From Eledone cirrhosa (Eukaryota): a stretch of DNA of 64,000 nt. The notes under the pieces were generated by a model. That model was given only the letters and a program-made list of their open reading frames with translations. It did not search any database and was not told the DNA's origin. This document shows, one piece after another, positions 12 through 63,060 of this stretch. The stretch covers positions 207,080,001 through 207,144,000 of the forward strand of contig OZ024742.1 in NCBI GenBank assembly GCA_964016885.1. The letters run 5' to 3'. Both the position numbers and the translations under genes were made by a program. Numbering within the stretch: the first letter of the stretch is position 1; every line of letters begins with the position of its first letter.

Positions 12-45
12 TCCTCAGAAGAGATATTATCTCGAAATATCAGGA
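12..45 (+). ncRNA. degenerate minimal type I hammerhead-like motif (CAGAAGA core)
   Basis: TCCT-CAGAAGA-GATATTATCTC-GAAA-TA-TC-AGGA; stem I TCCT/AGGA; stem II register ambiguous. Confidence 0.35.
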
Positions 46-299
46 TATACAAATAAATTTAAGGTAAAAGACTAATTGTCAGCAATAGCTTTTGCATTTG
101 TATTTATATTCTATATCTATACCTGCATTGTTCTGGCCTTCTAACTCCAAACATTTTTACGCAATGCTTCAAGTAAACTACAATTTCCCTCACATATATA
201 GAGAGAGTTTGTCTTACTGGACTCAGGGGCCCTCTATACCCCTCCATTTTACAGCATGGACTAGGTGCTTTTATTCGTGCCACTAGCACTAGAGAGGTT

Positions 300-496
300 G
301 TCTATCCCAGTAGAACGAAGATGCAGTAGAAGAAGACCATGAAAAACATGGGCGGGGGTGGTGAGAGCAGACCTCAGATCCCTGAAGCACATGGAGGAGA
401 TGGCGAAAGACCATGACAAGTGGAGAGATGCTGTGCTTAATAGGACTCATCCCACCCTTGCAAGCAGGGAAAAGCGGACGTAAAATTATGATGATA
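300..496 (+). mobile_element. RTE LINE 3'-end fragment
   Basis: Ends cccttgcaagcagggaaaagcggacgtaaaattatgatgat, like the (GAT)n-tailed RTE 3' ends at 39850 and 44380. Confidence 0.55.
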
Positions 497-671
497 TATA
501 TATATACACATATATACATATTTATATATGTGTGTGTGTGTATAAAATAAAGGATGGTTTTCTGAAGATCAGTAAGAAAAGGTACTCAGTTAAATAAGGT
601 ACTCAATACAGTAGTAAGGAAGAAGTATATTATATATATATATATATATGTATATATATATATATATATAT

Positions 672-57637: not shown

Positions 57638-58066
57638 TATATATATATATATATATATATATATATATATATATATATATATATATATATATATATATAT
57701 ATATATATATATGAAGTATTTCCGTCGGAATAGTGCAGGAAAAAAGAGTGCTCTATCTAGGCTACATAGCTTATTAGTTATGTAATAAACAACATAAGCT
57801 AATTATTTCATTTACCAGTTGTTTCTTGAAGGCAGATGTTATGTCTGTCTTCAGTCGTCAGAATGAATAAATAACATGGTGTTTCTATTAAATATGGATT
57901 TTAAAACAAAATTTAGGAAATATGAAAGTGAGGTTGAAAAAACGGGCAAAAACGGAATTAGGGGAAAAAATATATAAATAAATATCCAGAACATAAACAT
58001 ACACACACTCAACCAGGCTCATATACGTAATAGTGCGTAGACGTATACTTTCTCAGATGAGCGTAT

Positions 58067-58606
58067 TTGCGTCTACATAGATATAGTAAGATATTCAATA
58101 GAAATGTCGTTAAAATCAGCTACTCTTGCTCCCCATCAATGAAAACTAAAATTACCGACACTAATGGTACTAGAGTAAATCCAGGATGCAGGAAGCCGGA
58201 AGAATGCCCATTACAGGGTAAATGTAATACCAAATCTATTGTGTATGAGGCCAAATCGACACCGATAATTAATAACCAGCCAGCCAGGAGTGAACGATAT
58301 GTTGGCATAACTCAGGACAGATTTAAAACCAGGTACTATGCACATGTCGCTTCTTTCAAACACCCTGAAAAAAGAACAGCAACGGCGCTGGCAAATAAAG
58401 TGTGGGAGTTTAAAGACAAAAACATTCCGTACACTATTGATTGGTCTATTTTAGACCAAAGGGGCACAAAGAAATGTTCTTTGTGTACTACGGAAAAATT
58501 CAGAATTCTCCAAAACTTGACCCCCCCCCCCCCCAGTTGTCTCAACTCTAAGACAGAGATCTTTAGATGTTGTCCGCAACTGAAATCGCATCTACTTTTT
58601 AACTGA
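58067..58606 (+). mobile_element. Naiad-type PLE GIY-YIG fragment
   Basis: KIFNRNVVKISYSC, CRKPEECPLQGKC, IVY..YVGIT..FKTRY..H..SF, CSLCTTEK, LNSKTE. Confidence 0.88.
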
Positions 58607-60360
58607 ATTAACACACCAACGGTTACTCAACCACCCTGAGCTTCTTTACTTATCACGCCTTCCACTCACTACTAATATCTTCACCTTATGAACACATACT
58701 TTCTACCAATATATACTTCTTATCTCCCTCATCATTTTCTATATATATAGATTTTTTTCCTTTGACTTATAATGCCACCTCCCCCTATTTTCTACCATAC
58801 CATTAACACATACACACGCACCACCTTCATCCTTTACCCAGATCACTTTTTAACTATATACCATTATCCAGCTCTCATCACAAATACTCACTCTCTACTA
58901 CAACTTATACACCCCTTTTCTCCCTTACCTGTTCATAACAAAAATGTTTATAATATTTGATCTGTTATACTCCCCCTTGTCCTTACTTACCCAGTCGGTT
59001 TTTTAAGTGTACGCACATAAGGTTGTATGTGGGCGCATATGCAGAACGGCTTATGTGTACATACACATTAACGTGTATTTATTATATTATATATGTGTGT
59101 GTGTGTGTGTGTGTATGTATGTTCTTATGCCTGTATATCTTTTGTATGTGTATATATATATATATATATATATATATATTTATATATATATATTTATATA
59201 TATATGTGTGTGTGTGTGTTTGTGTGTGCGCGTGTGTGTGTGTATGTGTGTATATATATAAACAAAGGGATATTTAATTTGTTGGTTATTCAACAAAAAA
59301 TATATATATTTATAACTGATTCAAAGCACTCGACAGTCTTCTGGAGTATAATATCATTTTTTTCATTTTTTGGTACCCCCCTTTTTATACCCCCACCTGC
59401 GAGCGCGTGTGTATTTATAGTTTGTTTGCCTATATGTTTATGCACACACACACGCACTTGTATGTATGCATGTGCGTATGTATAGGTGTGTGTGTATATT
59501 TATATATATATACATGTATGCATATATATATATATATATATATATATATATATATATATATATGTATATATATATATATATATGTATATATGTGTGTATA
59601 TAATTGTATATGTGTCTTTGTATATATGTGTATGTGAGTATATGTATATATATATATATATATATATATATATATATATATGTGTGTGTGTATATGTATT
59701 TATTTTTATATATATACATATGTGTGTTTGTATGTGTGAATAGGTATATATACATACTGAGAAAATTTGATCCGGAATTATTGCCAGTGTCCAACGAACC
59801 TGCAGTTCCAGAATCAGGCAGATCAATACAATCATCGTGACTCGAGCTGTCTGCCGGCGGAACAATTGTAACACAAAATAAATTGAGTCCAGATGCATCA
59901 CGGATTTTTCGTTTTATATTATATCACACTCTGCTCTGTAAGAACCTTTAGTGCTCAACCGGCATACCGCCTATGGAAGCATCATAGCTACCATCAAACA
60001 CACACACACACACACACACACACACACAGACAGACACACACACACAGACAGACAGACACACACACACAGACAGACAGACACACACACACACACACACATA
60101 TATATGTAATATATATAAATATATATTATATATATATATATATATATATATATATATATATATATATATATATATATATATATAAGTTCGATTCCTGGAC
60201 CAGGCGATGCGTTATGTCCTTGAGCAAGACACTTTATTTCACGTTGCTCCTTCTACCTGGAGTTGCGACCGATAGATAGTATTAGCAATTGGAAAGACCA
60301 ACGGAAACACTGTTCCCTCGGTCCGATTTGACGAAAGTCGATCGTTCCTCATATATATAT

Positions 60361-63060
60361 AAGCAAAAGGGATATTCAATTTGTTGGTAATTCAACAAAT
60401 ATAAATGTTTATAACTGATACAGAGCACTCGACAGTTTTCTGGAGTATAATATTCAATGATATTAAATAAATGGAAACTATATTTATAAAACCATATTTA
60501 TTCTTTTATATATATTTCAAGGGTACCAACATTTTGGTACGCTTTCATCAGATAAAATACGAAGTGTGTTTTATAAATTTTGACATAACCAAGAAAATAC
60601 CTTAACTCTTCAAGCTTTCCTTGGATAGTGAACGGATAAGAGAAGAAAAGTCAGATATTTCAAATTATTAAGATGAGTATGCAAATGAGGTTGAGGTAAA
60701 GGGCTGAAAAAAAACGTTCTTTTAGACGCTATGGAGACTTTAATTAATTATGATATGTGTAGGAAAGAAGAAAAAAGAAAGAAGAGCTTGCATTTACGTT
60801 AATTTGGGGAAAAAGTGGAATATGATTCCAGAGTTTAAATTTAAATTTATTTACCTATATTATGAGTTATAATATTGTATATACAATCAATTAGATTATA
60901 TGAAGAATTATGGTTGTAAGTATTTTTATCTTATTACATTACAATAGGTTATATATATATATCCATATAGATTAATAATTGTGCATGTATTAGTATTATA
61001 GAAATAGAAATAATTTACAATTATTAGTTGTTTATATTTCTAATATGAGTTACGAGGAATATTGATTTGGTATTTTACATAAAAAAATAGGTGGTTCAAG
61101 TTGTGAGAGGAGAACAATTTGTAGATTAGAATATTTTGTTCAACATTGAAAATGTTTTGAGAATATTGTTAATTTAGCAAAGTTATATAGATTATCGTAC
61201 ATAATATGTTTATGTTTGCACGATTGAGAAAGGAACGATAACTCCAATTTTGTTTGTTAACCGTTAAATTTGATGAGTGATTAACTCAGAAAATATATAG
61301 AGAAAATTATATATTATTTAGTGTGAGATTAATTATTTTAGTCGAAAGATGTATGAAAGTTTATTTCAAAGAACTATCGTAAAGAGGATAAATTTTCAGA
61401 ATGTCAATTAAAGATTATCAATCTACATCTAAAATAATATGTTTAGATGGATGTCATTAGGAAAATAATGTCAGAATTAAAAATATTAAAATATATATAT
61501 ATATATATATATATATACATAAAAAAAAATTAATGTCAAAAGGTAAAAATATTAGAAATATTAAAAAAATTAGAAATATTAAAAATAGCTCTGAACGTAG
61601 AATTTTGGCGATGTCTGCAAGAAGAAAATAATTCTGTTCTAAGATTAATAGAGTTTTGACAGATAATTATATAAAAAATTTCTTCGATACACAAGTTACA
61701 GAATCTTGAGAAAGCCATATTTCAGTATGCAGGTGCTTTCGAAATTGTTCTCCAAGATATTGAATAGTCTATGTTGTTGTCTTTTAAGTTCCAAATTAGA
61801 TGTGAAAATGAAGTAGAAGATTTTTTTTATTGGATCTCTTAAATGTGTGTTTATGATTATTCCAGCGTTCTTTGAATTTTGTTGAAGTGGCACCAATATA
61901 GTTAAATATTTTGTCTCTAGTTTTAACTGTGCATTTATAAACTACGTTTTTGTCTAAACAATTATTTTATAAAGGGCAGTTTGATTTGATTCTACAGTTA
62001 CATTTTCTGGAGTCGTTGTTGTTCGGAACGGTATTATTATTCTGAATATTGTTGTTAGACATATTATTATTGCTATTTTGGTTAGTTTCGTTAGGGTTTA
62101 AATTGAGGTTTCTATTATTAATTCTATTTATATTTTGTGCTATGTTCATAGTAGTAGACTAGGATAGTTTTATAGTGTGTCTGTTAAAAATAGAGTGGTA
62201 TCTGTGGAAAACATTTAGGAAAACATTTATCTAGTGCTTTAAAAAATAACTTTGCTAAAGGTGTTTTAACGCTTAATGAGAATGGAGGAGAGTACCAAAC
62301 AATATTTCTAGTTCTAGTTTTTTTGTTTGGTTTAGTGTTTAAGTTAAATTGTTTATTATTATTATAATTAATTCTAGGATGATTTGTCATGTTATTGTTA
62401 TGTATGTATTTAATTTTATTCGAGTATCCTGCTCTATGTAAAGCTTCATTATAATATTCAGATTTATCATCAAAAATATTTTTATTAGCAGAGATGCGTG
62501 AAATCCGTTGTTGGACGTTATTGACAATAGTGTTTTTAATACTTCTAGGATGATTAGAATTGAAACTTACATAATTTAGATGTTCGTTAATTTTATCGAA
62601 AGGATAGTAAAGACCCGTGCTAAGGTTTAAGGTTACATCTAAGAAGTTAACGATTTTGTAGTTATTCTCTATTTCTAACTTATGGTTGTAGTTGTTGAAA
62701 AATTGTATTATGGATTTCCTTTTCCTATTAATTTCACTATTGCTATGGTTTTCAATTAAAAGTAATATATCATCACGATATAAAACACTGGTAATCTCTG
62801 GCATTTTCCTATGAAGTACATTATTAATAAATAAGCCAACGAGGTCCGTTGCTTGCGCCGAGTCAGATGATCCCATAGTGATATCAAAATTGTTTTTTTT
62901 CGGTCGGCTCTTGTCCAGAGATAATTATTAAATTCTATTAGTGTTTTACGTGCTGTTAGAATTATATTCATTTCATCACTAGATAGGTCTGTATGTTTAG
63001 ACGCGTAAGTAAACTAGGGGTAATAGAGGAGTAGTAATTTACAATATCCATTTATTAAAT
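60361..63060 (-). mobile_element. Naiad-type PLE (RT, GIY-YIG, long AT-rich 3' UTR, pLTR with HHR), decayed
   Basis: MGSSDSAQATDLVG, LYRDD, VNFLDVTLNL, SNHP, VWYSPPF, CNCRIKSNCPL, VVY..YIG, CNLC..E, CRH. Confidence 0.9.
60499..60559 (-). ncRNA. type I hammerhead ribozyme, canonical core
   Basis: TATTTTAT-CTGATGA-AAG-C-GTACCAA-AATG-TTGGTAC-C-CTT-GAAA-TATATA-TA-AAAGAATA. Confidence 0.82.

Follow-up and report, generated by a model that had tools for sequence, protein, structure and literature searches.

Hammerhead ribozymes in a 64-kb window of the Eledone cirrhosa genome and their probable origin in Penelope-like elements

Why does a 64-kb stretch of the Eledone cirrhosa genome carry so many hammerhead ribozyme (HHR) motifs, and what left them there? 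The stretch, here called the window, spans positions 207,080,001-207,144,000 of contig OZ024742.1 (GCA_964016885.1; genome total 2,995,841,428 bases) and consists of repeat-filled animal DNA with microsatellites, fragments of long interspersed nuclear elements (LINEs), along with remnants of Penelope-like elements (PLEs); coordinates below count from its first letter. An earlier note on the window had described an HHR-dense locus of about 15 type I HHRs, most of them in non-autonomous elements. We conclude that most motifs are very probably the 3' pseudo-long terminal repeat (pLTR) ends of protein-coding PLEs, surviving as truncated or head-to-head stubs by (TA)n tracts, and that a minority belong to tandem-unit retrozymes likely copied by PLE enzymes.

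Hammerhead motifs in the window

Motifs were sought with a structural descriptor (CUGANGA or UUGANAA core, stem II, GAAA, stem III as hairpin or palindrome, UH and stem I), which superseded a stricter one that had recovered just two motifs. It identified seven intact HHRs, all with the type I hammerhead core and an open stem I, whose cores lie at 8671+, 25372-, 27156+, 30661-, 30776+, 56591- and 60551-. Across 200 block-wise dinucleotide shuffles the mean count was 0.125 and the maximum 2; shuffled sequence, the test set in advance, thus did not reach similar counts, and the reversed window yielded none. Rfam did not corroborate the motifs, its models giving no hammerhead match in the window at the gathering threshold and no HHR among the best 150 of 175 matches listed at E up to 10. 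Taken singly, six of the seven stem III words fold into no hairpin, and they could pair only as dimers; a dimer-type palindromic stem III is described for PLE HHRs in passages of PMC4209133.

Every coordinate listed in the earlier note carries an HHR or HHR-derived sequence. The count itself held in part: six of the listed motifs (8658, 25339, 30603, 30768, 56554 and 60499) are intact and 27845 is nearly so, but the other eight, though they belong to real families, are damaged or non-canonical. By inspection and folding, 27845 is a complete U3-A8 HHR with one stem III mismatch and a 56-nt stem-loop II, above the descriptor limit. Among the eight, stem I is absent at 7731, U16.1 is lost at 23293 and 23575, 22264 carries U4C plus G8C, 23575 and 34815 have the U4A core typical of family K, and single core changes mark 56796 (A9G), 57337 (G5A) and 57530 (C3U without its G8A partner). 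The 15 full motifs fall into 11 families, or 9 when three related AT-rich ones are merged, in keeping with the proposed minimum of eight.

The halves reported at 773, 6264 and 29913 can be assigned to HHR families as truncated members; the first is the 3' half of a U3-A8 HHR (780-824, minus strand) with a complete copy at locus L020. Additional motifs lie at 27156 (intact), 57861, 31150, 39559, 4535, 8051 and 16. The motif at 4535-4575 (plus) is a dead copy of an abundant family, which accounts for 9 of the 67 HHRs that the same descriptor found in 78 evenly placed 10-kb stretches of the genome (780 kb; hereafter the genome sample). The one at 16-56 (plus), which may be what the first listed coordinate, 12, marks, is degenerate and HHR-like, with a CAGAAGA core and stems II and III, no stem I, and an inverted partner just upstream of the window.

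Rearranged (non-circularly permuted) HHRs were absent from the window with the strict descriptor, the only one run, and the rearranged-order search of the 780-kb sample returned one tandem artefact and one circular permutation. CTGANGA boxes at 562, 22223, 38999/31706, 53787 and 54093 were rejected as HHRs, which they do not complete. One of these regions, 22223-22260, has CTGAAGA, a 7-bp stem I and UH with no nearby GAAA strand; the permuted-order search offered no explanation for it.

Protein-coding parents of the solo motifs

Judged by sequence, families B, C, C1, D, F and K are pLTRs of PLEs whose open reading frame (ORF) encodes reverse transcriptase (RT) and GIY-YIG domains, present in the window as 5'-truncated or inverted stubs. 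Some parents show an HHR-ORF-HHR arrangement. Family F is represented by the 3' end of a young PLE (25263-26543, minus), with the last 147 bp of the ORF, the 3' untranslated region (UTR) and an intact U3-A8 HHR (25339-25376); 40 scored places are 100% identical over 141 nt, and in its parent (L102) two HHRs enclose a 938-aa RT/GIY-YIG frame with a period of 4,979 bp, of which the window copy is the last 1.3 kb. Family K has 24,039 exact matches, and 94 of the first 100 carry the U4A core CAGAAGA. In its HHR-ORF-HHR parent (L122; period 3,259 bp) the ORF is 93-94% identical to a 5'-truncated RT/GIY-YIG ORF in the window (23883-25233, plus), which shows the same identity to other copies and recurs in 7 of 8 fetched K pair loci. 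There it is joined to a classic inverted pLTR (23466-23885, minus; U4A core at 23619), and a second K stub (34815-34911, plus) is truncated at its core.

Family D, with 20,288 exact matches, contributes a pLTR stub (27010-27237, plus) with an intact HHR (27150-27200), a hairpin stem III and U-U at 10.1-11.1; in its parent (L174) an intact 758-aa ORF is immediately preceded by an HHR. Family B, with 673 matches that keep the full core, has an HHR-ORF-HHR parent (L184) and an inverted pair with ORF (L185). In the window it forms a PLE (27830-29850, minus) with an ORF remnant (28676-29850), 3' UTR and the U3-A8 HHR with the 56-nt stem-loop II (core 27935), together with its inverted arm (29770-30053, plus; the half at 29913). 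A stub at 6177-6400 (plus; the half at 6264) consists of two head-to-head arms, both core-less, joined in the HHR stem-loop II, and a 3' fragment at 33277-33399 (plus) has no core. We had considered 6264 as a ribozyme-less hairpin element, a reading rejected by the core and stem-loop II of the parent; a family B search for a CUGANGA core within 38 nt had returned 80 chance matches and no parent.

In family C the HHR listed at 60499 lies downstream of its own broken RT/endonuclease ORF (61566-63043) in a PLE with 3' UTR and intact core at 60551 (60352-63043, minus). Family C1 (8,907 matches) is present as a head-to-head pLTR pair (57184-57651) with one mutation per core, 95% identical to pLTRs that flank a PLE ORF in L209; in L208, C1 pLTRs enclose some 2 kb of simple repeat, CA/TA-rich and devoid of a PLE ORF, which could be a non-coding form derived from an autonomous family. 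The 7731 motif, a minimal HHR of a PLE pLTR with palindromic stem III and no stem I (7733-7762, plus), follows a GIY-YIG ORF remnant (5118-5539, plus), an arrangement repeated in a second locus (L049). The non-autonomous label therefore fails for 60499 and 7731, each of which has a PLE ORF upstream within the window. Family E likewise has an inverted pLTR (57682-58603; core 57861-) joined to a 5'-truncated GIY-YIG ORF (58061-58603+), matched in L203. A further PLE 3' end (31093-32601, minus) carries a GIY-YIG remnant and a damaged U3-A8 HHR (core 31150), and its second copy (38178-39616, plus; 90%) has a damaged HHR with core at 39559.

Two families are probably of the same kind, and with them the motifs at 22264, 30603 and 30768. 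Family J (22264-22312, plus; 7,024 matches) has U4C in 93 of the first 100 matches, the G8C of the window copy being private, and a sister subfamily flanks a PLE ORF in one of three fetched loci (L213). Family C2 (9,798 matches), a head-to-head pair of intact HHRs (30556-30881; cores 30661- and 30776+) and probably a PLE pLTR, shares 630-760 nt of upstream sequence among copies and has an ORF in one of five pair loci. Fetched pair loci without a PLE ORF numbered 2 of 4 for D (L175, L186), 1 of 2 for C1, 4 of 5 for C2 and 2 of 3 for J. The U4A core of K and the U4C core of J (about 7,000 copies) are family-wide non-canonical cores, a less ordinary feature.

The 938-aa and 758-aa open frames each combine RT with a GIY-YIG domain at the C terminus in a single ORF, on what we take to be the motifs of these domains. 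GIY-YIG and RVT_1 Pfam matches of the window ORF remnants were weak and below cut-off. The PLE ORFs returned 104 homologues, mostly of about 700 aa, and their translations have a Cys-rich linker ahead of the GIY-YIG motif. HHR-bearing pLTRs, in partial-tandem or inverted order, occur in L102, L122, L184, L209 and L213, and with periods of 3.3-5 kb and an ORF present, families B, C, C1, D, F and K are not short ORF-less tandem units. The two intact frames (L102:3808-6621 (-), 938 aa; L174:5464-7737 (-), 758 aa) are candidates for currently active elements.

Retrozyme families

Three families differ from these. The motifs at 8658 (family G), 23293 (H) and 56554/56796 (A) can be classed as tandem-unit, ORF-less retrozymes, a minority of the motifs; each family combines a short non-coding unit, one type I HHR and tandem occurrence. 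The G copy (8355-8909, plus) comprises a unit of about 315 nt (8533-8909) with an intact U3-A8 HHR (8666-8713) and an inverted arm (8355-8483); none of 10 loci has a PLE ORF upstream. A G dimer (L196; G000:C1:254220723-254223923) has one C3-G8 unit followed by one U3-A8 unit, a natural compensatory change of the core pair. The family is 68% similar to a 311-bp array on contig C1; L052 (G000:C1:1238001-1248000) and L041 hold a near-identical 311-bp retrozyme array with at least nine cores, related to the 8658 family.

Family H has 11,418 matches and arrays of three and five units with a period of 420-430 bp; the window holds a monomer (23112-23568, plus) whose HHR (23294-23333) lacks U16.1. The 421-nt H unit carries a short (TA)n of its own, the target sequence of these elements (L178; window 23112-23568). 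Family A has 224 exact matches, a 328-bp dimer and terminally redundant monomers, and is present as a head-to-head pair (56434-56999) of the 328-nt unit, with core 56591- intact and 56802+ changed by A9G. Copies of all three families run through the cleavage site, and their template was therefore uncut or religated. The retrozymes were likely copied in trans by PLE enzymes.

The proposal that the motifs are of the PLE pLTR and retrozyme kind is thus upheld by ORF-bearing parents and tandem units. That most are non-autonomous is true of 4 of the 15 (8658, 23293, 56554 and 56796), but six (23575, 34815, 25339, 27845, 57337 and 57530) belong to families with pLTRs around an ORF.

Insertion footprints

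In the genome sample a (TA)5 tract lies within 250 nt downstream of 56 of the 67 HHRs and upstream of 31, against 22% of random positions, which agrees with the earlier placement of the units near (TA)n. Adjacent ORFs are also mostly lacking, as reported: within 3 kb upstream, inside the 10-kb stretch, a PLE ORF occurs on the same strand in 0 of 67 and on the opposite strand in 6 of 67. Such absence does not imply non-autonomy, because many of the solo motifs belong to families that flank PLE ORFs elsewhere. In every autonomous family the copies favour two alternative 3' ends, separated by about 85-110 nt, and inverted pairs that we inspected usually have one short arm and one long.

Truncation and inversion points cluster in HHR helices and not at the cleavage site. 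In an unbiased set of 117 copies from B, C, D, F and K, two have 5' ends within 5 nt of the cleavage site. In BLAST alignments the 5' end falls within the 3' part of stem-loop II for 22 of 31 B copies and from -7 to +8 of the core for 21 of 30 D copies, clustering that subfamily divergence in loop II or upstream may inflate by shortening the matches; the 5' ends of C, F and K are spread across hundreds of bases. Junctions read directly are free of this bias: B arms keep the core in 3 of 26 cases and have joints that differ between copies, and in 18 of 20 head-to-head D pairs the cores are at most 17 nt apart. The half motifs are thus arms that end within the ribozyme. Cleaved templates had been considered from an A copy (L009) whose sense arm starts approximately at the cleavage site, an arrangement that is not general (2 of 117). 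A literature search found no description of inversion joints concentrated in HHR helices. Among genome-wide matches, several B stubs border on other HHR families' core and stem II, as though the template had been switched between families at that stem.

The chief competing account, which is that of the earlier note and which we consider unlikely, makes genuinely non-autonomous elements of most short units and supposes that solo pLTRs or hairpin stubs are transcribed and then copied again in trans. It is true for A, G and H, and it fits the lack of same-strand upstream ORFs. It would also fit family D, most of whose 20,288 exact matches start at the stem I 5' arm, and the full-length L174 element, whose 5' pLTR starts 12 nt ahead of the core, as would follow from a transcript start. 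The 6264 hairpin, too, shares an identical joint with 12 of 14 other top matches. However, B, C, C1, D, F and K all have ORF-bearing parents, and the 5' ends of C, F and K are widely scattered. The identical B joints go back to the query, in which the joint was already present; B copies collected without that bias differ, and a fixed master hairpin, which the biased search had suggested, is not supported by them.

Genome-wide density

The claim of a dense locus did not survive comparison with the genome. The pattern CTGANGA-N(8-30)-GAAA-N4-T has 275,915 matches genome-wide (2,996 Mb) against 41,510 in the reversed control, and 6 against 2 in the window, a rate of about 1 per 10.8 kb in window and genome alike; its U3-A8 version has 198,428 matches against 114,134. 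With the structural descriptor, the genome sample held 67 HHRs against 5 in reversed sequence, which scales to a genome total of about 238,000 (157,000-326,000 by bootstrap) and gives P=0.32 for seven or more HHRs per 64 kb. Because the window rate equals the genome rate, the window is typical and the genome itself is dense; the locus is an ordinary sample of an HHR-strewn genome. The 67 HHRs form 20 clusters of unrelated sequence that keep the same architecture; 47 have a palindromic stem III, bearing out the earlier emphasis on palindromes, 7 a U3-A8 core and 11 U-U at 10.1-11.1. Each family is scattered in hundreds to tens of thousands of copies.

A special, selected ribozyme cluster in the window, for instance one that processes a host transcript, is accordingly very improbable. 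PLE coding remnants do make up a larger share of the window (about 11%) than of the genome sample (1.4%), most of our queries being window-derived, but the density equals the genome mean, which largely refutes the idea, and the motifs lie on both strands, include many mutated copies and belong to dispersed families. Chance matches in AT-rich, palindrome-rich DNA, for which the silent Rfam models, the eight imperfect motifs of 15 and the large backgrounds of the loose patterns (41,510 of 275,915; 114,134 of 198,428) might speak, are refuted by both control comparisons, by one architecture across 20 unrelated clusters and by C3-G8 and U3-A8 together in one G dimer, and can be set aside almost with certainty.

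Other features of the window

A transfer RNA-like short interspersed element of about 190 bp lies at 2971-3162 and about 15 more places, partly in tandem at 16242-16828. LINE fragments with RT, apurinic/apyrimidinic endonuclease and PHD domains occupy 10198-16200, 19541-21589 and 39792-41870. Broken frames at 35600-37500 have no Pfam match and, to our eye, resemble a hAT/ZBED-type transposase. Two palindromes have no HHR core: a TA-rich one of 250 bp (93%) at 32978-33227 and a perfect one of 50 bp at 53387-53436.

Discussion

The preferred reading, protein-coding PLEs as the source of most motifs, draws its mechanism from the insertion footprint and from PMC11167929 (Frangieh et al. 2024), where, in the passages concerned, both DNA strands are nicked and extended by a PLE protein that prefers AT-rich sites and uses two internal starts, and insertion in vitro does not depend on HHR cleavage. 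Here the PLE RT/GIY-YIG protein would nick TA-rich DNA and begin reverse transcription at internal positions immediately 3' of the HHR, with uncut or re-circularized RNA as template and often from both DNA ends. Synthesis of complementary DNA (cDNA) would mostly end early, frequently within HHR helices, and the complementary HHR arms could then provide micro-homology by which two cDNAs become linked head to head, leaving solo stubs, inverted pairs and half motifs. For retrozymes the same copying from multimeric or circular RNA would produce slightly more than unit-length copies through the cleavage site. Intact copies are predicted to self-cleave, as monomers in D and B or as dimers via the palindromic stem III in A, C, F, G and H; self-cleavage appears unnecessary for insertion.

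Several points weigh against this reading. The three-way junction was poorly recovered by single-strand folding, with z below -2 in 3 of 12 motifs. A parent is unproven for 22264 (sister subfamily only), for 30603/30768 (ORF in 1 of 5 pair loci), for 773 and for 16. Subfamily divergence can inflate the clustering of BLAST-based 5' ends, short stubs could be re-amplified from solo-pLTR transcripts, and PLE mobilization of A, G and H is likely only. The evidence for the system as described here comes from DNA sequence.

In kind the system is known (PMC4209133, PMC7229834); less ordinary are its load, the non-canonical cores of two families (K and J) and joints that centre on the helices. The parts of PMC4209133 (Cervera and de la Pena 2014) considered here describe HHRs in pLTRs around an RT/GIY-YIG ORF, most minimal HHRs being solo and derived from truncated PLEs, pairs on opposite strands (spaced by 100-700 bp in that account), numerous divergent families in a single genome, U3-A8 cores, an extra base before stem II and palindromic stem III, all as here. 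They report 2,000-9,000 minimal HHRs in schistosome, coelacanth and Xenopus, whereas we estimate about 240,000, with descriptors that differ; the hairpin stem III and 56-nt stem-loop II of some families and the family-wide U4A and U4C also set the present system apart from that account. In axolotl, 126,247 canonical HHRs are reported (PMC7229834) in a genome of 28.21 Gb (Li, Clavereau and Pollet 2026, 10.64898/2026.07.22.740005), as far as the relevant passages go; the load here is about twice that, a rough comparison because the descriptors differ.

Metazoan non-LTR (non-long terminal repeat) retrozymes and their link to PLEs are described in portions of PMC7229834 (Cervera and de la Pena 2020) and of the 2026 preprint, and A, G and H resemble them in their 315-430-nt non-coding units with one type I HHR each, found as monomers, dimers and multimers; the axolotl HHR_Amex2 likewise has U-U at the base of stem II. 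Unlike those retrozymes as portrayed there, the copies here, seen as DNA alone, are for the most part scattered monomers in (TA)n that have inverted arms of the PLE type, and they make up a minority of the HHRs. The PLEs resemble the endonuclease-bearing clades with a Cys-rich linker (Neptune/Nematis; PMC8557442, PMC11167929) in that linker and in their C-terminal GIY-YIG domain, their (TA)n targets, an arm that is inverted and 5'-truncated and a tail at only one end, a likeness of features and not of a tree; the passages on those clades give tails of 30-40 nt, against about 85-110 nt in the autonomous families here. Inverted 5'-truncated PLE copies, one-sided tails and a (TA)n bias are described in sections of PMC8557442 (Craig et al. 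2021).

Of the core variants, U3-A8 is known to be active and U-U at 10.1-11.1 is present in active HHRs; in the relevant passages of PMC3088659, U4C lowers activity in vitro and no statement on U4A activity was found. We found no paper on cephalopod hammerheads in a search that covered mostly open-access texts, and supplements may list cephalopod HHRs or counts; a word search through the main text of a 2026 curated Octopus vulgaris repeat annotation (PMC13282606) gave no instance of ribozymes.

The function of PLE hammerheads is called open in part of PMC8557442. A tentative suggestion, one we hold to be possible at best, is that the PLE hammerhead serves as a structural joint for the RT: its helices would set where the cDNA stops and where two cDNAs join head to head, and catalysis would no longer be needed in certain highly successful families (U4A, U4C), in a genome that would carry the largest HHR load met in our searches. 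That load would be about 240,000 intact HHRs, or more than 300,000 if variant cores are counted, at one per 10-13 kb. With its young intact PLEs (938 and 758 aa), its 20 or more HHR families in which the core varies naturally and, for each family, thousands of insertion footprints, the genome makes it possible to test what cleavage and HHR structure contribute to the mobility of PLEs and retrozymes.

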